From the UHGV virus genome UHGV-0104572: a stretch of 11,433 bases of DNA; one strand, 5' to 3'. Position numbers and translations under genes: made by a program. The notes under the pieces are model-generated. The model was not told the origin of the DNA, made no database searches, and worked only from the letters and a program-made list of their open reading frames with translations. The first letter of the stretch is position 1, and every line of letters starts with the position of its first letter. Source of the DNA: a virus. Below, one piece after another: positions 50 through 11,383 of the stretch.

Positions 50-2068
50 TTACATTACTGTAATAATAAAATCCAAATCAACATTGGCACCTGTATTATT
101 AAATGTCTTAACCGTAATTGAATAGTCTGAATCCCTTGAGAAACTTGAATATCTACCAGATCCTCCAAACAATGTAATATTTGGAACGAGTGTTGAAACG
201 TTAAATGTAAAATCTATCTTATATGTTCCTGATGACAGTCTAGATACATTTGATATGTTCTGAGCTAATGAATAAGCACCTGTAGATGAAATATTTGCTC
301 TTGCAGATACCAACCCTTGGCTATTTCTCTGAACTTTTTCCAATCCAGAATATGGTGATTTCATTGAATTTTGGTTGCCAAAGTCTGTAAAAACAAGATG
401 GCTAACACCAAAAGATGAAGGGACGACAAATTGCACTTCTTTAAATGCAGATTCAGCAGAAGCACCAGTGTTAAGAAAACCATTTCCCATCATATTCAAA
501 TAACATTGAACACCAGAACTGAGATCTGATTGATTTGACTGTACTATAACTCTAGATGCGCTAACGGAATCTAAATTATAGTTAAATATTGAATTATTTA
601 TGTTAATAATTTGATTTAAGTTTCTGTTTATGTAAAAACTCACATCAGAACCAGTATTTGATTCGAAATAGCAATTATCAATTGTTGCTGCGACACGACC
701 TGCACCACCAATCAACGCAAACTGTACGCACGAATTAAATGCAATTGGGGTCCCGTTGGAATATGATTTCCCTCCATTTGCTTCAAACGTACAAGTGTCA
801 ATTTTCCAAGCGTGTGCGTGTTGGTTTTCGATACAAAATTCAGCATTGTACTGAAAATCACAGCGTGAAAGTCTTATTGAGTTTGGTCCTGACACTTCAC
901 CAAGTCTTCCTTGTATTGCTGTTTTGTTATAAGTAAATCTACAATTGTTAAACTCAAGATATAATGAATCTTTCAGTTTACACCCAATCTCAAAGCCATC
1001 TATCAGAACATTCCTCATTGAAAGCCTGATGCATTTGTTTATATTTAATCCAAATCCTGACCAGTCAGATCTATTGGCACTTGAATCTACAGATCTGATA
1101 GTGAGGTTTTCTATGGGGAATGATGAAAATACTGAAAGAGAGCCATCAAGATAAATCCCGAAATTATTCTGCGAAGTTTCTGAAGCTAGTATATTTACTA
1201 TTGATAACTTTTCGTCAACACCTCTTATATAAGCTACTTTTCCACCTTCTCTCTGGTGTATTGGTATTGATACTGGTGATTTTAAATTTATAATATTGCC
1301 TGGTAAAACGACCCCAAGCCCAAGAACTCCGGCGGCTGAAATGGCCTTCCTTAGATTTGGTGATAAGTCCAAGTTATCATCAGGATTTCCATGCATACCA
1401 TACATTTCACCTGTGATTTCTTTGATGTCTCTTCTAACCCAACAACCGTTTGATGATGGATGTTCATCTCCAACTCCGTTTACATAGTCTGATACATATG
1501 CATCTCCAATATATGGAACTGATGGTGATATTATACACCCTCCGTCATGCTTCGACCTTATTATGCTGTCATTAAACTCAAAAATACCACCACCACCACT
1601 TCCATCTCGATACCATGACTTTAGTAAAACCTTATCTCCATTATTAGATTCCATTCCATAAAAATCAGATACAGCACCCAACTCACCAACTAAATTAAAA
1701 CCACCTTTACTAGATAATTCCTCTCTTAATTGATCAGGGTCATACTTCAGCACATTCGGAAAATAGAACTGCTTAGCACCATATGCATCATAAACAGCCA
1801 TAGAATGGCCTTGCACGGTAACGAATTTGGCAATCTGTCCGTTATATACCGGATATCCAGCAGCGTTAATGATGATTGGTTGCGAAACAGGAACGTGAGA
1901 TCCGTCTTCGTTCTCCACATAAACCTGAATCTGGTTTTCAGGATTTACCGGGTCAGTGTCAATTTTACCGATATAAATTTTGCCATTGGCTACAGCTTTA
2001 AAAGAACGAGCCATAGTGAAGAGTTGCGAAGGCATGCTCACTACAACATTAGCTGTAATGTCTGTCAT
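50..2068 (-). CDS. Tailspike protein: P22/HK620-type N-terminal head-binding domain, divergent C-terminal receptor-binding domain
   Basis: 672-aa ORF. The first ~115 aa ([11 protein letters not shown]...[11 protein letters not shown]...NVLKYDPDQ) match the conserved P22 gp9 / HK620 tailspike head-binding domain as I recall it. The rest is G/N/S-rich with NxS/T repeats, typical of a beta-helix, but does not match the P22 or HK620 receptor domains I remember. GGAG lies 8 nt upstream of the ATG at 2068. Confidence 0.85.
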
Positions 2069-2168: not shown

Positions 2169-3092
2169 TCAGTAGTTATGTACTGAAGGAGGTAATTCTT
2201 TATTCTTAAGTCTCATCCATGCGGAAAGATTCGTTGGTCCGTCTGGCTCATTAATATCAACATCTCGTGTGTGGTTTATTAAAACGTCTCTCGCCATTCC
2301 GATAACATACGAGAACTTATGACCGTAGTCGTAGCATCTGCCGGAATAGTTCGATTGAATTTGTTTTAGCGCCGGATACAGTTCGCGGAATAATGCCTGC
2401 GAACGGTTGGCATAATCCCATAACCATACAAGGCTGTTTGCTTCTTTTGCAGAAAGCTCGTTGGTTTTCTTCTCTTGTTTGCCAATGAACTCACCTTCAA
2501 GTGGAACTCGAGCTGCAAGTGATAGTGCTTCGGTAAACTGCTCCTCACTGATTTCTTTGTACGAACATCCAAAATGGGATTTTAGTGACGACCACATGGT
2601 GATCATCGCCTTAGCCTGTTTTTCTTTTGGCAGAGACTGACCGCGACTCATGACGAGTTGTTTAATGGCTTCCTGCTGTTCAGTGGTGATTTTACCCGGC
2701 AACGCTTTTTTAGCTTTGCGTGGGTTAACTACATGGCCTTTAGTCCAGTACTCGTATAGCACATCGTCACACTCTTCTTGATACTGGATTACATTGTCGC
2801 GGATTTCAGGGCGGACTTTGTTAGGGCTGATGGTTTGCAACCAGCCATTCAGTTTACGTAAAGCAAGGCAAATCATGGTCTGCACACCGCCAACTGAAGG
2901 TATTGCGATTTCCACAATTCCTTTAGCAAATCTTTGTTTTAACTTTGTAAACTGTGAAGCCCAATCCATACCCATTCCCTCAACGATAGGTTTCATTGGG
3001 GTGTACGGCTCACCGTTGTGATTGACAACATAAAGCTCTGCGCCGTGGAATGGTACATTGATAGTAGATACTGCTGTTGCTATACTTTTCAT
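2169..3092 (-). CDS. ant: Antirepressor Ant (P22 immI-type)
   Basis: 307-aa ORF directly downstream of arc on the same strand, the same order as P22 arc-ant-gene 9. The N-terminus (SIA..A..T..VPF.G.E...) resembles what I recall of P22 Ant and AntA-type antirepressor domains. AGGAA lies 8 nt before the ATG. Confidence 0.7.
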
Positions 3093-3161
3093 GTCGTTAA
3101 TTCCTATGCGTGGTTTTACGATATCGAAGCCCTGACTGTTCCCGCAGTTGGGGCTTCAACT

Positions 3162-3323
3162 TTACGCGCCAATGCGTCCTTCCTTCTTAAAACTTTCCAT
3201 TACTCTCTGATAAATCTCAGAGTTAACAGACCGACCATTCTCTTCCGCCACCTTGCGTACCAAATCCAATACTTCTTTAGGCCACCGCAAATTGAACTGC
3301 GGCATTTTGCTCATTCCTTTCAT
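3162..3323 (-). CDS. arc: Arc repressor (ribbon-helix-helix)
   Basis: Translation from the internal Met gives MKGMSKMPQFNLRWPKEVLDLVRKVAEENGRSVNSEIYQRVMESFKKEGRIGA, 53 aa, essentially identical to P22 Arc with one K/R difference by my recall. The longer 74-aa ORF in the track is an upstream extension running through the operator region. Confidence 0.9.
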   Translation of the reverse strand: MKGMSKMPQFNLRWPKEVLDLVRKVAEENGRSVNSEIYQRVMESFKKEGRIGA

Positions 3324-3339
3324 ATTCACCTCACAATAT

Positions 3340-3356
3340 GGGTCCACGGTGGACCT
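3340..3356. promoter_or_regulatory. Omnt operator (Mnt binding site)
   Basis: Palindrome gGGTCCACGGTGGACCt, matching the 17-bp P22 mnt operator AGGTCCACGGTGGACCT except at the first base. It sits at the predicted Pant start site. Confidence 0.8.
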
Positions 3357-3390
3357 GTTGAGAATGTAGTAGAGTGCTTCTATCATGTCA
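3357..3390. promoter_or_regulatory. Divergent Pant / Pmnt promoter region
   Basis: Minus strand (Pant): -35 TTGACA (plus 3385-3390), 17-bp spacer, -10 TACATT (plus 3362-3367), start site inside Omnt. Plus strand (Pmnt candidate): -35 TTGAGA (3357-3362) and -10 TATCAT (3381-3386), 18-bp spacer. Pmnt placement is less certain. Confidence 0.65.
3366..3386. promoter_or_regulatory. Oarc operator (Arc binding site)
   Basis: Reverse complement reads ATGATAGAAGCACTCTACTAc, matching the P22 arc operator ATGATAGAAGCACTCTACTAT with one end mismatch. It lies between the -35 and -10 of Pant. Confidence 0.75.
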
Positions 3391-3413
3391 ATACACTAAC
3401 TTGGAGTGATGGC

Positions 3414-3668
3414 ATGGCTAGAGATGATCCGCACTTTAACTTCCGCATGCCTTTGGAAGTAAGAGAAAAATTAAAATACAGAGCAGAGTCAAATGGTAGA
3501 TCAATGAACTCAGAATTGTTGCAAATCGTCCAAGATGCTCTATCGAGACCATCTCCTGTAAAAGGTTATCGCAATGAAGCTGAACGATTAGCCGAGATGC
3601 AGGCTGAACAGTTCAAGTCTGTGGTATTTGAGACACTTAAAAACATGTATGGCAAGGATGCAAAATGA
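3414..3668 (+). CDS. mnt: Mnt repressor (maintenance of lysogeny; represses Pant)
   Basis: MARDDPHFNFRMPLEVREKLKYRAESNGRSMNSELLQIVQDALS..., 84 aa, closely matches P22 Mnt as recalled. GGAG lies 7 nt upstream of the ATG. The 216-aa ORF in the track is an unsupported N-terminal extension. Confidence 0.9.
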   Translation: MARDDPHFNFRMPLEVREKLKYRAESNGRSMNSELLQIVQDALSRPSPVKGYRNEAERLAEMQAEQFKSVVFETLKNMYGKDAK

Positions 3669-4246
3669 TCGATTACAACCCAGCAAAAAAAGAAATCATC
3701 GCAGCTAAAAAGTGCCTAGAGCAGATGAAATCATCTACAAACCATGATGATTTTGAAATGCACTGGCGAGAATGTCTTGGGCATATAGAAAAGTCTTTCA
3801 GTAAGTTGCTCTGTGCAACAAAGCCGGTTAGTGGAAAATTTAGCAGCCACTTCAACCAAAAGTTCATGCTTAGAAAAACAGACAAAACACTTGCTTACCT
3901 TCACCAAGCAAGAAATGCTGATCATCATTCCACTATGGAAATCTCAAAACTTGAACCTCCTTATACTACTCTTGGGGCATTTCCGGGAGCAAGAAGCCAT
4001 TATATTAAAGAGTTAATCATTGATTCAACAGGGAAAATAGCAAAATACGAAGGCGACCCTATGATAGTTGAGTTTCATCCAGCAACAACTATGCCTATAA
4101 CCGTAAGAAACCAAGGCAAAGATTATCCACCTCCAACAGAACATCTTGGCGAAAAGCTTGTTGATATACATCCATCTGTTCTTGCCTATCTCGGTATACA
4201 ATTTTATGAAAAATGGATAGATGAGTCGTGTGCAACGTTTAGATAG
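3665..4246 (+). CDS. Hypothetical protein (193 aa), translationally coupled to mnt
   Basis: The ATG overlaps the mnt stop (ATGA). It is a long clean ORF with no transmembrane segment and no motif I recognise. It occupies the mnt-to-sieA interval of a P22-like immI region. Confidence 0.6.
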   Translation: MIDYNPAKKEIIAAKKCLEQMKSSTNHDDFEMHWRECLGHIEKSFSKLLCATKPVSGKFSSHFNQKFMLRKTDKTLAYLHQARNADHHSTMEISKLEPPYTTLGAFPGARSHYIKELIIDSTGKIAKYEGDPMIVEFHPATTMPITVRNQGKDYPPPTEHLGEKLVDIHPSVLAYLGIQFYEKWIDESCATFR

Positions 4247-4463
4247 TTATTTTTGATAATTTCAAGTATTTCCTCTTGACTTTGATTTACCCAAACGTGA
4301 TCACACTCATGAAACCAGATTATGCTTCCTGTTTCGCCTTGTGCAATATAGGTGATCATGTTTTCATTAACAATTATTACTGAGTTATCATGTGCGCAAT
4401 TTAGTTTTATCAATTCGCATATCCTATCGTGACAAAGTAACTAGAAAAACTAAAGAGGTTGGT

Positions 4464-4958
4464 GTGTCTGATTCTATGAGTTACGCTGTGCTAGTTGCCG
4501 CAACTCTATTTATGGGGATAGGGTTGCAGATTGCGTGGTTCTTTTTTTCTAGTTTTATTAAACGCAAAAGAATTGAATCAAGGATATCTGAGATTTCTAT
4601 TGCTATAGGGAAAAATGCTGAAAATCCAGAGAATGAGGCCTGCGCACTGAATTACCTTAAAGAAAAGTTTTCCCCTGAAAAATTTGAAAATAGAATTACT
4701 GATGCTCTTGGATTGGTAATATCAGTAATTCATATGCCACTAAGTTTGCTGATAACAGTGTGGTACTTCGCCATGATCGCCGGAAGAATATTTGGTTTCA
4801 TGAATATAGAGCCTGTAGTTCTTTGGGTTCCAATGATACTGCAACTGTTGTTAAGCGTTGCTATCTTTATTTTTTCTGTTTTTATAAAAATTGTCTTTGG
4901 AAGATACCCCGGAGAAGCTAAGGGATTTAATAAAGAATTCATAAAAACTATAAAATAA
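4464..4958 (+). CDS. Inner-membrane protein, SieA-like superinfection exclusion candidate (by position)
   Basis: Four hydrophobic helices ([21 protein letters not shown]; [21 protein letters not shown]; two more near the C-terminus). Start is either GTG 4464 (GAGG 5 nt upstream) or ATG 4476. Synteny mnt > orf > membrane protein, convergent with the gp16-like gene, matches the P22 sieA position. I cannot recall the SieA sequence to confirm. Confidence 0.55.
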
Positions 4959-4980: not shown

Positions 4981-6198
4981 CTACTGCCGGGTCGCTTCGT
5001 TAGCTAAGAGCGGGCGCACGGCAGTAGCAGCCTGATTTAGCGCTCTTTCATAAGCTGGCGTTCCAGCTTTAGTGTTTGCCAGACGTAAGAGCGCATTCCT
5101 TGCTGCTTTGGACTCATACAAACGCATCATTGCACCAAAACCAGCCTCAAGCCCCATTGATACTCCAAGAGTCGCAGTTGCGCCAATCGTCCTTATCCTG
5201 TTGGCTTGTGATTGCCCCGTCTGAGTTACTACATTTGCGGTGTCTGACCTTGCTGTTTGCTGTAGAACTTCATGAAGAGCATCGAGCTCTTTCATGTGCT
5301 TTCCAGAAAAAATAGTGTTGTAAATTTCACCGCCTGACTGAGATTTAAGCTTATTAACTTCAGTGATGAACTTGGCTGGAGAGTCACCGGCCTTTTCCGC
5401 TATTTTGCTGACGTAAGCTGCACGCATAGCATCTTTCCCTTTATCATCCAATGCGCTCCAGATTCGTTTCACGTCAGATGGTTTTCTGCTTAATACAACG
5501 GTATTTATAAGTTCAGGACTGGCTTCACTGCTTGCCTTGTTGAGCTTGTTAGCAATGTTTTTATTAAGCACCTTATTATAAACGTTTGCATAATCTGAAT
5601 TTGCTTTAAGGTATTTTGCTGCGTCTGATGCACCGAGGTTTTTAGCAACTGCGTTACGAAGGTCTTTTGACATTGCATTCTCTACCATATTGGTAGCTGC
5701 TTTTGCCTGGTTGGGGAAGACCATAGCATCTCCCTGAACATTAGATCTAAATGCTGTTCTGTGCTGACGCAAGAGATCAAACGTAACATCCAAATCAGTT
5801 GCAGGGTTTGCTAATTCTTCGCGTAGGTTACGCAAGGATGTAAGCAGGCTTTGATTGGCAGACGTCCCAAGCCGTTCCTGTCTTGCGATCGCTGTATTCA
5901 GAGCATTCATAGTGTTTGTGGTATCAACTGCGGCATTCCCCATTTTATTGGTGACGTCATTGATAACAGCGCCAGCGGCATCCTTCCGTCCCCTTAACGT
6001 GGTGGTCAGAGATTTCACCACATCATCCGGGTTGTACTCACCAAAACGGTCAAAATAATTACTTACCAACTTACTACGCGTTGCATATTGCTCCGCTCGC
6101 TTTGAGCCTGTCCCGAGCAAAGCCCCCTCGGCATTCGGGATGGCTGCATTTTGCGGTAAGCACGAACTCAGCCAGAACGACAAACAAAAGGCTATCAA
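4981..6198 (-). pseudogene. DNA ejection protein gp16-like, N-terminally truncated remnant
   Basis: 405-aa Ala/Asn/Lys-rich ORF on the same strand as the tailspike, immediately distal to the sieA-like gene, which is the position of gene 16 in P22. The first ~20 codons are antisense to the Q fragment, so the homologous part probably starts near 6130. Identification is by synteny and composition only. Confidence 0.4.
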
Positions 6199-6475
6199 CT
6201 ATCTGATGCAATTTGCACACAAGGTATCGGGGAAATACCGTGGTGTGGCAAAGCTCGAAGGAAATACTAAGGCAAAGGTACTGCAAGTGCTCGCAATATT
6301 CGCTTATGAGGATTATTGCCGTAGTGCCGCGACGCCGGGTGCAAGATGCAGAGATTGCCACGGTACAGGCCGTGCGGTTGATATAGCCAAAACGGAGCAG
6401 TGGGGGAGAGTTGTTGAGAAAGAGTGCGGAAGATGCAAAGGTGTCGGCTATTCAAGAATGCCAGCAATCAGCTAA
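6131..6475 (+). pseudogene. Q: Antiterminator Q (lambda-type), internal fragment
   Basis: [51 protein letters not shown]...CRDCHGTGRAVDIAKTEQWGRVVEKECGRCKGVGYSRMPA matches the central part of lambda Q as recalled. The N-terminal ~50 aa and the C-terminal part are missing, and the strand is inverted relative to what a collinear prophage would have. Confidence 0.8.
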
Positions 6476-6670: not shown

Positions 6671-6967
6671 TCAGAATTGCATATCAATTTGCTTAAAATC
6701 CTCGGTGGCGGCCGGGGATTTTTTCTTTGTGATTCCATCCAATGCATACTTAAAAGCCCTGCTAATCGGACTGATGTCTGATGCCATTCCGAAAGCACAC
6801 AAGACCGAAGCAATAAACCTCCAGTCCGTTCTGCTTATCTTCGATTCATGACAGCCAATCATCTTTGCCAGACCGCGCTGGGTAAGCGTTGACAGGTTGA
6901 TGAGTAAATCAGTTTCAGCGCGATCAATTTCTCGCTGTGTTGGCTTGCTATAACTTGCTTGTGTCAT
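6671..6967 (-). CDS. cII: CII-like transcriptional activator
   Basis: 98 aa. The helix-turn-helix segment LAKMIGCHESKISR parallels lambda CII AEAVGVDKSQISR, and the C-terminus KKKSPAATEDFKQIDMQF parallels KKRPAATERSEQIQMEF. It sits downstream of cro on the same strand. Confidence 0.8.
   Translation of the reverse strand: MTQASYSKPTQREIDRAETDLLINLSTLTQRGLAKMIGCHESKISRTDWRFIASVLCAFGMASDISPISRAFKYALDGITKKKSPAATEDFKQIDMQF
6945..6958 (+). promoter_or_regulatory. CII-binding direct repeat TTGC-N6-TTGC (PRE -35 region)
   Basis: TTGCtataacTTGC overlaps the 5' end of cII and points toward cro and cI on the plus strand, as PRE does in lambda. Confidence 0.55.
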
Positions 6968-7051
6968 TTGTTAATTTTCCAATAGTGAATAGTTAGTTGA
7001 AAGGTATGCGTGGAAACGCATATGGCCTTAGTTGGTCAGATATCTTGGGGC

Positions 7052-7097
7052 TCGCTTTGTCAGCGACGTAGGACGAATGTCCATTGTGAAAAGAGCG
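7052..7097 (-). promoter_or_regulatory. nutR: boxA-like CGCTCTTTT plus boxB hairpin with GACAA loop
   Basis: Minus strand has CGCTCTTTT (plus 7089-7097; consensus boxA is CGCTCTTTA) and UCGCU-GACAA-AGCGA (plus 7052-7066), between cro and cII. The loop is the P22-type GACAA rather than the lambda GAAAA. Confidence 0.6.
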
Positions 7098-7104
7098 GTG
7101 TTAC

Positions 7105-7305
7105 TTATGCAGTTGTTTTTTTGTTACTTGGGAAGGGCTTTATTTCTTCCGCATAAACGCTTCCATCAGCGTTTATAGTTAAAAAAATCTTTCGGCCTGC
7201 ATGAATGGCCTTGTTAATCGCGCTTTGATATACGCCGAGATCTTTAGCCGTCTTGGTTTGCCCAAAGCGTATTGCATAATCTTTCAGGGTTATGCGTTGT
7301 TCCAT
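7105..7305 (-). CDS. cro: Cro repressor
   Basis: [66 protein letters not shown], 66 aa, is lambda Cro with about two conservative substitutions. TAAGGAGG precedes the start. Confidence 0.95.
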
Positions 7306-7329
7306 ACAACCTCCTTAGTACAGGCAACC

Positions 7330-7399
7330 ATTATCACCGCTAGAGGTAAAATAGTCAACACGCACGGTGTTAGAAGTTTATCCCTTGCGGTGATAGATT
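7330..7399. promoter_or_regulatory. OR1-OR2-OR3 operators with divergent PR and PRM promoters
   Basis: OR1 7332-7348 is TACCTCTaGCGGTGATA on the minus strand, one G>A change from lambda. OR2 7356-7372 and OR3 7379-7395 match lambda exactly. PR on the minus strand: -10 GATAAT (plus 7330-7335), -35 TTGACT (plus 7353-7358). PRM on the plus strand: -10 TAGATT (7394-7399); the cI ATG is at the expected leaderless start. Confidence 0.9.
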
Positions 7400-7402
7400 T
7401 AA

Positions 7403-8119
<717 letters not shown>

Positions 8120-8150
8120 TTGTTTTATTTTTCACGTAATAGGATGATTT

Positions 8151-8492
8151 ATGACACAATTTCAACTTGCATTAATCGCTAGAGAAGTTGATGGAGAAGT
8201 CATCCATCTTCGCACCAAAGACGGATACATCAATGCCACCGCGATGTGCAAGTCTGCGGGGAAGCTACTTGCTGACTATACACGACTAAAAACAACACAA
8301 GATTTTTTTGATGAATTATCACGCGATATGGGGATTCCCATATCGGAGTTAATTCAATCATTTAAAGGCGGAAGAGCAGAGAATCAAGGGACTTGGGTTC
8401 ATCCAGACATCGCAATTAATTTAGCTCAGTGGCTATCTCCAAAATTTGCAGTGCAAGTATCGAGATGGGTGCGTGAGTGGATGTCAGGTTAA
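8151..8492 (+). CDS. KilA-N domain protein in the rexAB slot
   Basis: 113 aa; AGGA lies 6 nt before the ATG. The segment GYINATAMCKSAGK...GTWVHPDIAINLAQWLSPKFAVQVSRWV matches my recollection of the KilA-N signature (GT[WY]VHP..A...A.W.SP.F...V). It starts 31 nt after the cI stop, where lambda carries rexA. Confidence 0.65.
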   Translation: MTQFQLALIAREVDGEVIHLRTKDGYINATAMCKSAGKLLADYTRLKTTQDFFDELSRDMGIPISELIQSFKGGRAENQGTWVHPDIAINLAQWLSPKFAVQVSRWVREWMSG

Positions 8493-8531
8493 AGAGCGCC
8501 TGCCGAACTCCCTATCCACCTTAAGCGGTAT

Positions 8532-8910
8532 ATGACAAACCGAGGCAGAGTTCCTCATACGCACTTTTCTATGCTTAATGAACTGACGTTTAACTTGGTT
8601 GCGCCACTTGAACAGGCCGGATATACGCTGCCAGAAAAAATGGTCCCTGATATTTCAGAGGGTAGGGTTTTCTCGCAATGGCTCCGTGACAACCGGGGGG
8701 TTGAGCCGAAGACATTCCCAACATATAACCATGAGTACCCAGATGGCCGGACATTCCCGGTACGTCTATACCCAAACGAATATTGCAGATTTCAAACAAT
8801 ACTTCAACGAAGTGTGGCTGCCTCAGTACGCTCCTAAATATTTTGCTGAACGAGACCAAAGGGCATTGACGTTGATTGAGAAAATCATGCTACCTGACCT
8901 TGATTCCTAA
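8532..8910 (+). pseudogene. Unknown ORF with a frame break (frame 0 for 8532-~8780, frame +1 onward to 8910)
   Basis: Two overlapping ORFs (8532-8837 and 8599-8910) each look protein-like only in complementary halves: ...RTFPVRLYPNEY in one, ADFKQYFNEVWLPQYAPKYFAERDQRALTLIEKIMLPDLDS in the other. The break is near 8778-8786, not at a homopolymer. The first half is in the same frame as the KilA-N ORF, separated by a single TAA and 13 open codons. Confidence 0.5.
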
Positions 8911-8918
8911 ATGTTATT

Positions 8919-8944
8919 CCCGGCCACAGAGCCGGGTTTTCTTT
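8919..8944 (+). terminator. t_imm-like rho-independent terminator
   Basis: cccggc-cacaga-gccggg followed by TTTTCTTT, 9 nt after the stop at 8910. Sequence from here to OL matches the lambda rexB-to-OL interval as recalled. Confidence 0.7.
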
Positions 8945-9096
8945 GCCTCACGATCCCCCTCACCCAAGAACACATAACCAATTGTATCTATTTGAAAATA
9001 AATAGATACAACTCACTAAACATAGCAGTTCAGATCTCTCACCTACCAAACAATGCACCCCTGCAAAAAATAAATTCATATAAAAAACATACAGAT

Positions 9097-9167
9097 AACC
9101 ATCTGCGGTGATGAATTATCTCTAGCGGTGTTGACATAAATACCACTGGCGGTGATACTAAACACAT
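9097..9167 (+). promoter_or_regulatory. OL3-OL2-OL1 operators and PL promoter
   Basis: OL3 9097-9113, OL2 9117-9133 (tatctctAgcggtgttg, one G>A versus lambda), OL1 9141-9157 (exact). PL -35 TTGACA 9131-9136 and -10 GATACT 9154-9159, reading rightward. Confidence 0.9.
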
Positions 9168-9227
9168 CAGCAGGACGCACTACTCACCAGGGCGGTGAAT
9201 ATACAACGATTCAAATATGAATCTACG

Positions 9228-9242
9228 GCGCTGACAAAGCGC
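9228..9242 (+). promoter_or_regulatory. nutL boxB (P22-type)
   Basis: GCGCUGACAAAGCGC is a 5-bp stem with a GACAA pentaloop, identical to the P22 nutL boxB as I recall it. It lies ~65 nt downstream of the PL start. I did not find a boxA upstream. Confidence 0.7.
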
Positions 9243-9370
9243 AATAACCAAAGTGAACTTTGGGGTGAATGCAGAAGCTAACCTTCTCGGCGGAGGCGCT
9301 TTGCAATGATTACGCTACCGGAGTTAGTCGCCCGGCTGTATTCACCGCCAAAGTTCACCAGGAGGTCTAT

Positions 9371-9538
9371 ATGACACGCAGAACTCAGTTCAAAGGCAAT
9401 TCACGTTCTCGTCGTCGTGAGCGTTTAAAGGCAAAGGCATTAGCTAACGGCGTACTGGCCCGCGAAGAAGCAATAAGTTCAGAAGTATTACACCGCCCTG
9501 CGCCATCATCAATGTTGCGGCGATCGGCATCACCTTAA
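9371..9538 (+). CDS. N-like antiterminator, C-terminally truncated (55 aa)
   Basis: AGGAGG lies 6 nt before the ATG at 9371. The arginine-rich motif GNSRSRRRERLKAKA resembles the P22 gp24 motif GNAKTRRHERRRKLAIE. Full N proteins are ~100 aa; the last ~15-30 codons here are recT-derived DNA read out of frame. Confidence 0.6.
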   Translation: MTRRTQFKGNSRSRRRERLKAKALANGVLAREEAISSEVLHRPAPSSMLRRSASP

Positions 9539-10236
9539 ACCCAGCCAGCAAACTTGCTTATCTAGTTCCGCGCGACGGCATGGTTTGCCTTGATATCAGT
9601 TATATGGGATTGCTCCATATTGCAATGGAGTCTGGTGTTATCTCATGGGGTCAGGCAAAACTTGTTCATGCTAACGATACCTATGAGTCAAACGGGCTTG
9701 ATAAAGCACCAACCCATAAATACAACGCCTTCGGTGATCGTGGTGATATCGTTGGCGTTTACTGCACAGTTAAGACGCCAGCAGGTGATTATCTAACGGA
9801 AGAGATGAGTCTGGCTGAAATTGAGGCTGTAAGGAAAACAAGCAAGGCGGCATTCAGCGATAAAGGACCATGGGTAAATCACTGGAATGAGATGGCGCGA
9901 AAGACGGTCGTAAAGCGTGCAAGCAAGTATTGGCCTAAGGCATCACGTCTTGATAGTGCTATTCACGTACTAAACGAAGAAGAAGGTGTATGGACTGAAC
10001 CAGTTATGCCGTACAAATCAGAGGAAGATATCCGCGAAGATGAACGGAAACGCCAGCAGGAAATAACGGATAAAGCACAACTTCTTTGTGATGAAATGGC
10101 TCAGGCAGAAAACATGGATGATTTGAAGCGATATTTTGCAGAAGCATATCGCCTGACATCTGGAATGAAATTGCAGCATAACGTACAAGCCATTTACATA
10201 GAATGCAAAGCGAAACTGGAGGTTGCCAGTGAGTAA
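9448..10236 (+). pseudogene. recT: RecT-family recombinase, 5'-truncated remnant
   Basis: The frame is open from 9448. CAIINVAAIGITLNPASKLAYLVPRDG aligns with E. coli RecT SAIVQCSQLGLEPGSALGHAYLLPFG, and KGPWVNHWNEMARKTVVKRASKYWPKA with NGPWVTHWEEMAKKTAIRRLFKYLPVS. The N-terminal part is absent and there is no start codon or RBS for the homologous region. Confidence 0.65.
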
Positions 10237-10711
10237 ACTATATGAAATAGCCAATGAATACGCAAAATTGATGGATTCAGATTTAGAGCCAGAGATGATT
10301 GCTGACACAATAGAAGGCATGGAAGGAGAATTTACCGATAAAATAGAGCAACTTCTTTCCGTCATTAAAAATGAATCTGGTTATGCTGAACGCCTCAAGG
10401 AAGAGGCAAAGTCACTGAATGAGCGAGCCGCAGTAATTCAAAATAAGATTGACAGCATCATATCATATATAGCGTCATCGCTTGAAATGGTAGGCAAGAA
10501 AAAGATTAGAGCAGGTATTCACCAGGTAACAATCCGCAAACCGTCAGAAATTGTAGAAATAATCGACTCAAGCGCCCTTCCTCCTGAATACGTTGAGTTT
10601 GAAACAACAATTAAAGCCGACAAACTGGCAATCAAACACCAACTAAAAGCAGGAATAAATATCCCCGGCGCTCAACTCAAAGTTGGGAAACCTTCACTTC
10701 TTATCAAATAA
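10229..10711 (+). CDS. Siphovirus Gp157-like coiled-coil protein
   Basis: GGAGG lies 7 nt before GTG 10229, overlapping the recT stop. The ~160-aa protein has a charged coiled-coil N-terminal half and a C-terminal ...PPEYVEF...KAGINIPGAQL segment, resembling the Gp157 family often found next to recT/erf. Family assignment is from memory. Confidence 0.5.
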   Translation: MSKLYEIANEYAKLMDSDLEPEMIADTIEGMEGEFTDKIEQLLSVIKNESGYAERLKEEAKSLNERAAVIQNKIDSIISYIASSLEMVGKKKIRAGIHQVTIRKPSEIVEIIDSSALPPEYVEFETTIKADKLAIKHQLKAGINIPGAQLKVGKPSLLIK

Positions 10712-10774
10712 CGGTATCGCCTATGAAAAAGACTCCATGGGAGAAATGGGAAGTCGATTTCTTGCGCGAAGTAG

Positions 10775-11383
10775 CGGCGACAAGGCCATATAACAACAAA
10801 CCCTGTCGCTGCCACTCGCGCAGCAAAATCAGAGGTAAGGAGATCAAGACTTACGGCTGACGAATACCTGAAAATTTATCAAGCAGCAGAATCATCACCA
10901 TGTTGGCTCAGACTTGCAATGGAACTGGCTGTTGTTACCGGGCAGCGAGTTGGTGATTTATGCGAAATGAAGTGGTCTGATATCGTAGATGGATATCTTT
11001 ATGTCGAGCAAAGCAAAACAGGCGTAAAAATTGCCATCCCAACAACATTGCATGTTGATGCTCTCGGGATATCAATGAAGGAAACACTTGATAAATGCAA
11101 AGAGATTCTTGGCGGAGAAACCATAATTGCATCTACTCGTCGTGAACCGCTTTCATCCGGCACAGTATCAAGGTATTTTATGCGCGCACGAAAAGCATCA
11201 GGTCTTTCCTTCGAAGGGGATCCGCCTACCTTTCACGAGTTGCGCAGTTTGTCTGCAAGACTCTATGAGAAGCAGATAAGCGATAAGTTTGCTCAACATC
11301 TTCTCGGGCATAAGTCGGACACCATGGCATCACAGTATCGTGATGACAGAGGCAGGGAGTGGGACAAAATTGAAATCAAATAA
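10775..11383 (+). pseudogene. int: Integrase (lambda Int-type) remnant, C-terminal catalytic domain only
   Basis: From ~10784 the frame reads GHITTNPVAATRAAKSEVRRSRLTADEYLKIYQAAESSPCWLRLAMELAVVTGQRVGDL...HLLGHKSDTMASQYRDDRGREWDKIEIK, about 98% identical to lambda Int from residue ~168 to the end, including the catalytic Tyr in SQYRDD. An in-frame TAG at 10772 and unrelated upstream sequence replace the arm-binding and core-binding domains. Confidence 0.9.

Follow-up and report, generated by a model that had tools for sequence, protein, structure and literature searches.

The gene orf193, which begins on the stop codon of the mnt repressor gene in a P22-like prophage remnant of E. coli, likely encodes a member of the HEPN superfamily, although this assignment, which derives from an invariant Rx4H motif in a modelled four-helix bundle, is not proven. 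The function tentatively proposed for it by analogy with HepS and Tha, that of a stand-alone, lysogen-expressed HEPN-type abortive-infection RNase, is plausible at somewhat less than an even chance. The membrane protein encoded immediately downstream is, judged by homology, SieA type A, which is already known and adds nothing new. The window, by which is meant the whole stretch of DNA that was analysed, comprises 11,433 nucleotides of the virus genome UHGV-0104572, and the features that bear on these findings are as follows.

50-2068, minus strand: tailspike gene
2169-3092, minus strand: ant
3094-3161, plus strand: sar antisense RNA of the immI region (Rfam RF00262, 81.8 bits, E=4.5e-17)
3162-3323, minus strand: arc repressor gene, 53 aa, whose translation matches Arc
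3338-3391: divergent promoters Pmnt (plus strand) and Pant (minus strand) with the Mnt and Arc operators
3414-3668, plus strand: mnt repressor gene, 84 aa, TGA stop at 3666-3668
3628-4466, plus strand: mobile cassette that comprises the 3' end of mnt (~13 codons), orf193, the spacer, and the GTG of the next gene with its ribosome-binding site (RBS)
3654-3658, plus strand: Shine-Dalgarno sequence AAGGA for orf193, within the end of mnt and 6 nt 5' of the ATG at 3665
3665-4246, plus strand: orf193, 193 aa, ATG at 3665-3667 and TAG at 4244-4246, predicted HEPN-like RNase
3911-3928, plus strand: codons for R83-N-A-D-H-H88, the Rx4H motif
3932-4144, plus strand: codons of the beta-rich insert (residues ~90-160), which ends in a conserved PPxxHLG (P157, H160)
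4204-4413, minus strand: antisense ORF of 69 codons with a TTG start, probably not a gene
4247-4463, plus strand: AT-rich spacer, 217 bp, 32.7% GC, which travels with orf193
4464-4958, plus strand: sieA type A, 164 aa, GTG at 4464 with AAGAGG at 4453-4458
4981-6134, minus strand: 3' portion of gene 16, for an ejection protein, cut short by a deletion

The interval between mnt and gene 16, which the earlier note described as a site of cargo in P22-like phages, is indeed the known variable "ant moron" or immI region of these phages (PMC2629481). The presence of the sar RNA indicates that the immI region is complete, and the arc product is named "Arc family DNA-binding protein" in identical E. 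coli prophages. The gene 16 piece matches phrog_770 ("DNA transfer protein") at profile positions 256-663 only, and its homology to intact prophages stops at 6134.

The product of orf193 corresponds to the RefSeq hypothetical protein WP_000568382.1, which was not found mentioned in a literature search, and the gene has a low GC content of 38.7%. In searches of Pfam, PHROGs, PADLOC and NCBIfam, the sole family match is phrog_23516, which carries no function. The possibility that orf193 is a well-characterised housekeeping phage protein, which the earlier note had allowed for, is not borne out, as the family is unannotated in Pfam, NCBIfam and PADLOC and none of their models matches the protein. 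An exhaustive HMM profile search against 1.84 billion representatives clustered at 50% identity places at least 1,772 of them in the family at E<=1e-3, of which 1,296 remain at E<=1e-10, which indicates that orf193 is more than a chance ORF. The relatives are nearly all 170-220 aa in length and align from end to end; the named sources include Acinetobacter, Pseudomonas, Teredinibacter, Hydrogenophaga and a Chloroflexota MAG, and all of the proteins are labelled hypothetical. A tiny family had been suggested by the 7 clusters returned by a word-indexed protein search, and this suggestion was overturned by the exhaustive profile search. With tblastn, orf193 gives no match in the INPHARED phage collection and matches two Acinetobacter plasmids among plasmids, and a profile search of genome contigs with a narrow family alignment yields one locus. 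Among the 6-8 longer homologues, the search for informative domain fusions returned only a weak DUF6941 match.

Residues W34, Y78, R83, H88 and P157 are invariant in the family alignment (132 sequences with a mean column identity of 26%), and R70, D73 and H160 are nearly so (H160 is present in 126/132). The R83-x4-H88 pair is kept in all 132 aligned members, and the pattern R-[N/D/H/G]-x-x-x-H is found in 150/150 of the top representatives. The AlphaFold model of orf193, computed with the family alignment as input (pLDDT 94.9, pTM 0.86), has as its core a four-helix up-down bundle that consists of helices 5-23, 27-55, 60-88 (with a kink at residue 73) and 170-192. The modelled strands span residues 94-154 and form a beta insert of ~75 residues between core helix 3 and helix 4. 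The Rx4H motif closes the third core helix: it takes up the final turn of helix 74-88, at the C-terminus, and the insert follows directly. The earlier note had recognised no features in orf193; an invariant Rx4H in a predicted four-helix bundle is such a feature.

[quoted passage not shown] Three characters of HEPN domains, namely a four-helix bundle core, an Rx4-6H motif with a polar residue after the arginine, and the position of this motif at the end of helix 3, are found in the orf193 sequence and its predicted structure. Comparison of the 132 members and their consensus with Pfam, NCBIfam and PADLOC returned only noise for HEPN families, and two family members give weak RTasHEPN matches with E-values of about 0.002. 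A profile search of the PDB with the family retrieved nothing meaningful and no HEPN chain, and a Foldseek search of the PDB with the orf193 model retrieved nothing significant, the best E-value being 1 and the hits being generic four-helix bundles. A large insert at this place, between the third and fourth helices, is uncommon among HEPN domains and counts against the assignment.

An invariant Rx4H in a four-helix bundle points to a HEPN-type RNase and to abortive infection rather than entry exclusion. The proposal of an exclusion module in the earlier note stands in one part, as the downstream gene encodes the exclusion protein SieA, and needs revision in the other, as orf193 fits a candidate solo HEPN protein of abortive infection better than an exclusion factor. 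Alternatively, orf193 may be a non-nuclease helical bundle in which the conserved arginine and histidine serve another role, for example the binding of a ligand or of a protein from phage or host, and which may act as an exclusion or anti-defence factor; this explanation is considered unlikely.

The genomic settings of the relatives bear on the function of orf193. Of 5,426 complete E. coli genomes, 21 contain a close copy (at least 99% identity), as do 15 IMG/VR contigs, and all of these copies reside in P22-like prophages and start on the mnt stop codon. Diverged relatives (30-48% identity) are found in other temperate phages that contain no mnt, arc or sieA. One such relative is located at a prophage end with an adjoining tailspike gene, and one lies within a siphovirus tail region; a Pseudomonas relative adjoins genes for an endolysin and a spanin, and others lie in opposite orientation between a holin-endolysin-Rz cassette and HNH-TerS-TerL. 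Additionally, relatives occur next to Fic on small mobilisable Acinetobacter plasmids, and a Teredinibacter relative adjoins a KAP NTPase. One relative stands alone among housekeeping genes, which counts against the defence reading. An all-against-all comparison of the neighbouring ORFs at eight loci revealed no conserved neighbour, and neither an Mnt, Arc or ribbon-helix-helix (RHH) gene nor a conserved neighbour is present in eight diverse loci and 13 diverged viral contigs. Such a distribution fits an accessory gene that is carried by mobile elements and is sufficient by itself.

The same HEPN-type features could also belong to a HEPN-like RNase that does not act in defence, either as a selfish stabilising factor or a stress-response factor of mobile elements, with which the relatives beside Fic on small mobilisable plasmids and the relative among housekeeping genes are consistent, or as a regulator of the prophage RNAs, such as the ant mRNA and the sar RNA, with which the placement of orf193 in the operon that controls ant is consistent. 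However, many phages with relatives contain no immI region, so that a role specific to immI cannot be the function of the family, and relatives recur in lysogen-expressed accessory slots that are oriented opposite to the late genes, a placement characteristic of prophage defence genes (PMC13043305, PMC9122126). A non-defence RNase is therefore regarded as improbable, and a defence RNase that acts by abortive infection is the preferred reading of orf193.

A promoter scan places Pmnt (TTGAGA-17-TATCAT) at 3358-3386 on the plus strand and Pant (TTGACA-17-TACATT) at 3391-3363 on the minus strand, and the Mnt operator core, GGTCCACGGTGGACC, is located between Pant and Pmnt. Both promoters and the operators lie in a region that has 97% identity to its annotated P22 counterpart. 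Mnt matches the Pfam families Arc (2.8e-27) and Repressor_Mnt (3.4e-11), which correspond to an RHH N-domain and the Mnt C-terminal domain, and is 79% identical to P22 Mnt. On the strength of these matches and of the operator, Mnt in this prophage is an orthodox operator-binding repressor, in agreement with the earlier note, which had called it authentic.

The ATG of orf193 (3665-3667) overlaps the TGA of mnt (3666-3668) to give ATGA, as the earlier note had observed, with AAGGA, a good RBS, 6 nt upstream; all of the coordinates that the note gave are correct. All 21 complete E. coli genomes and all 15 IMG/VR contigs that contain orf193 preserve the overlap, and the mnt genes that take part in it represent at least three alleles, one of which is only 33% identical to the mnt present here. 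A sequence scan found no promoter or terminator between mnt and orf193, which, together with the similarity of Pmnt and the operators to those of P22, makes the co-expression of orf193 with mnt in the lysogen, and its translation from the Pmnt transcript as claimed previously, a sound inference. In P22, the same slot is occupied by orf59a, which is also on the mnt transcript and is unrelated to orf193.

The cassette at ~3628-4466 is shared, with at least 99% identity, by E. coli prophages that differ on both sides of it. Homology to P22 stops at 3595 and resumes at 4446, which indicates that the cassette replaces orf59a, the mnt terminator and the PsieA segment of P22. The left joint is located ~40 nt 5' of the mnt stop codon, and because it falls within mnt, the terminal ~13 codons of this gene move together with the RBS and orf193; it is this unit that is joined to the different mnt alleles. 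On the right, the joint coincides exactly with the GTG at 4464, and the RBS and GTG start are common to three downstream genes, which encode SieA-A, a protein with one transmembrane segment and a protein with a signal peptide. The slot of a different E. coli prophage holds a gene for a Panacea-domain protein and a partner on the other strand. The exchange joints thus lie exactly at gene boundaries, in the last codons of mnt and at the RBS and GTG of the next gene, and the locus shows P22-like prophages swapping protective cargo.

A joint inside the 3' end of mnt argues for a recombination seam rather than a toxin-antitoxin pairing, and the coupling of orf193 to mnt is, as read from the compared prophages, a product of the recombination cassette. 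A type II toxin-antitoxin system in which the RHH protein Mnt neutralises orf193 in addition to repressing Pant, a likeness that the earlier note had raised, is accordingly very improbable: the upstream RHH gene shares its final 4 bp with orf193, an overlap of the kind seen in many toxin-antitoxin operons, Mnt gives a weak match to a FitA-like RHH antitoxin profile, and HEPN toxins are common in such systems (PMC3710099), but the solitary relatives in the eight diverse loci and 13 diverged viral contigs argue against a pairing with an Mnt antitoxin, as do the attachment of orf193 to mnt alleles that are only 33% identical to each other, the orthodox nature of Mnt with its operator in place, and the unrelated orf59a in the position of orf193 in P22.

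The earlier description of a 217-bp AT-rich gap followed by a membrane protein gene is accurate. No intrinsic terminator was found in the spacer (4247-4463) or after orf193, no Rfam family matches the spacer, and its predicted RNA fold is no more stable than that of shuffled sequence (z = -0.07). The PsieA promoter segment of P22 is not conserved here, and the orf193-linked spacer stands in its stead. As neither an intrinsic terminator nor a stable structure is found 3' of orf193, read-through from Pmnt into sieA is possible, although this is only inferred. The antisense ORF at 4204-4413 has no family match in Pfam, PHROGs, PADLOC or NCBIfam, and PGAP makes no call for it. Its only copies are at least 94% identical and all lie in the same cassette; on account of these near-identical copies, this 69-codon ORF was rejected as a supported gene.

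The protein encoded at 4464-4958 matches phrog_7745 ("SieA-like") with an E-value of 1.2e-108 and is identical to P22 SieA at 151 of 164 residues (92%) over the full length. It contains the motif FxRYPxEAxxFNK, which characterises SieA type A (PMC10883804). As expected for SieA type A, which is a polytopic inner-membrane protein, the gene lies in a P22-like prophage with gene 16 on one side and gene 9 on the other. The earlier note had placed a membrane protein in the position of sieA, which is correct in position and understated in identity, and its suggested comparison with the P22 sieA locus has given both this degree of identity and the resumption of P22 homology at 4446. A match to a lysis or structural protein instead of SieA, which it had considered, is not seen, the match being to phrog_7745. 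The hydropathy scan reveals three hydrophobic regions, in line with the three predicted transmembrane segments of P22 SieA (PMC10883804), rather than the four transmembrane segments previously assigned. Both the phrog_7745 profile and P22 SieA align from the GTG at 4464, which gives 164 aa, whereas the mechanical ORF list and PGAP start the gene at the GTG at 4392 (188 aa).

In the mechanism proposed for the preferred reading, orf193 would form the second cistron of the Pmnt transcript and be produced in the lysogen through translational coupling to mnt, and its RNase chemistry would be carried out by R83 and H88 in a dimer. The protein would be kept latent until some component of the superinfecting phage, for which the beta insert is a possible sensor, triggers the RNase, and the triggered enzyme would then cleave tRNA or another RNA, by which the infection would be aborted. 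SieA would act separately from orf193 by blocking DNA delivery by P22-like phages, and the interval between mnt and gene 16 would thus stack two independent protective functions. A broader proposal, which is somewhat unlikely, is that the orf193 family constitutes a new and widespread group of single-protein HEPN sensor-effectors, in which the insert after the catalytic histidine is a phage-sensing element that unlocks the RNase, and in which wiring to Mnt makes the amount of RNase follow the immI switch.

If orf193 is an active solo HEPN defence protein, a function would be provided for the at least 1,772 "hypothetical" clusters, which are absent from Pfam, NCBIfam and PADLOC and are distributed over prophages, plasmids and genomic islands of many bacteria. 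The beta insert after the catalytic motif would represent a third architecture beside those of HepS and Tha, a class of single-protein HEPN abortive-infection systems that is very recent, and the family would offer a new case for how solo HEPN enzymes stay silent and are then triggered. Prophage defence by solo HEPN proteins is an already established concept, and the HEPN assignment of orf193 is not yet secure.

A comparison with P22 reveals that the locus shares with the ant moron or immI region of that phage the genes ant, sar and arc, the divergent promoters, mnt, a variable gene on the mnt transcript and sieA, whereas the orf193 cassette occupies the place of orf59a and the mnt terminator (PMC2629481). 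The two SieA proteins are orthologues of the same length with the same motif, and both genes adjoin gene 16 (PMC10883804); the difference is that the PsieA promoter segment is replaced here by the orf193-linked spacer.

Among defence proteins, HepS (STM14_3211) of the Salmonella prophage Gifsy-1 is a solo HEPN protein of ~200 aa whose gene occupies an accessory slot and is expressed constitutively in the lysogen; the protein requires its Rx4-6H motif and is non-toxic until it binds a siphovirus J protein, after which it acts as an anticodon nuclease (PMC13043305). HepS and orf193 are alike in that each is a single prophage gene in an accessory slot, has no partner gene and encodes an Rx4-6H motif. 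However, HepS is triggered through its N- and C-terminal tails and has its motif at R100-H105 (PMC13043305), with no beta insert in the published description, whereas orf193 carries R83-H88 and an insert of ~75 residues. The LT2 Gifsy-1 record contains no protein with R100-x4-H105. Tha, from Staphylococcus aureus prophages, is a HEPN-domain defence protein for which the activator is a structural protein of the infecting phage (PMC11087260). By this description it resembles the predicted orf193 product as a prophage-encoded HEPN-domain protein, and differs from it in originating from Gram-positive hosts.

A further group of HEPN proteins is represented by the HepT/MntA (HEPN/MNT) type VII toxin-antitoxin systems, for example SO_3166 (5yep) and 7ae2, in which "MNT" denotes a minimal nucleotidyltransferase that is unrelated to the P22 Mnt repressor. 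To our knowledge, HepT proteins are ~130-140 aa in length and are always paired with a nucleotidyltransferase antitoxin, whereas orf193 has no nucleotidyltransferase partner and carries a large insert.

The recombination joint downstream of orf193 falls exactly at the start codon (GTG) of the next gene, so that genes are exchanged at this joint as well as at the orf193 slot, giving two swap points. An identical RBS and GTG start codon is found in front of three unrelated genes downstream of orf193, which encode SieA type A, a single-transmembrane-segment protein of approximately 106 aa, and a signal-peptide protein. The mnt-sieA slot is a general cargo hotspot. The features of this region and of comparison loci outside the window are as follows:

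4453-4466, common RBS and GTG (~4826-4840 in locus L017; ~5154-5168 in locus L018)
4204-4413 (-), antisense ORF of 69 codons, TTG start, AGGA upstream
2784-3651 of locus L019, contents of the mnt-sieA slot in E. coli VTB96816v (NZ_CP178650.1)

The antisense ORF overlaps the end of orf193 and takes up the greater part of the spacer. All copies of it are nearly identical, and it is therefore without evolutionary support as a gene. In the P22-like prophage of E. coli VTB96816v, the slot holds a Panacea-domain protein and a 139-aa hypothetical protein on the opposite strand, and a second Arc-family gene is also present in this prophage.

The tailspikes (50-2068 in the window) diverge strongly between prophages with an identical mnt-orf193-sieA block (L035 to L021, IMG/VR contigs), and conservation in such prophages is limited to the first ~120-130 residues, a pattern that fits an exchange of the receptor-binding domain. 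The tailspike of locus L023 matches that of the window at 99.9%. In the otherwise near-identical prophage of E. coli Combat2C1, an additional gene is inserted between the tailspike gene and ant:

1323-1781 of locus L003 (E. coli Combat2C1), HNH endonuclease gene

The remainder of the window contains the following features:

4981-6475, gene 16/Q-fragment junction region
within 6671-11383, cII, cro, S24-type cI repressor, KilA-N protein and N-like peptide
within 6671-11383, truncated RecT, Gp157-family protein and truncated integrase
3340-3358, Mnt operator core GGTCCACGGTGGACC

Gene 16 is cut at ~6134, leaving only its C-terminal 384 codons, and abuts a fragment of the antitermination gene Q that lies on the strand opposite to that expected. 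The same junction is found in E. coli strain 81 (CP088131). The window thus represents the remnant of a prophage from which the structural and late region is entirely missing. It must have undergone several further deletions; the immunity and protective genes are kept despite the deletions.

The Mnt operator core of the window is a perfect palindrome, whereas that of P22, GGTCCACCGTGGACC, contains one mismatch.
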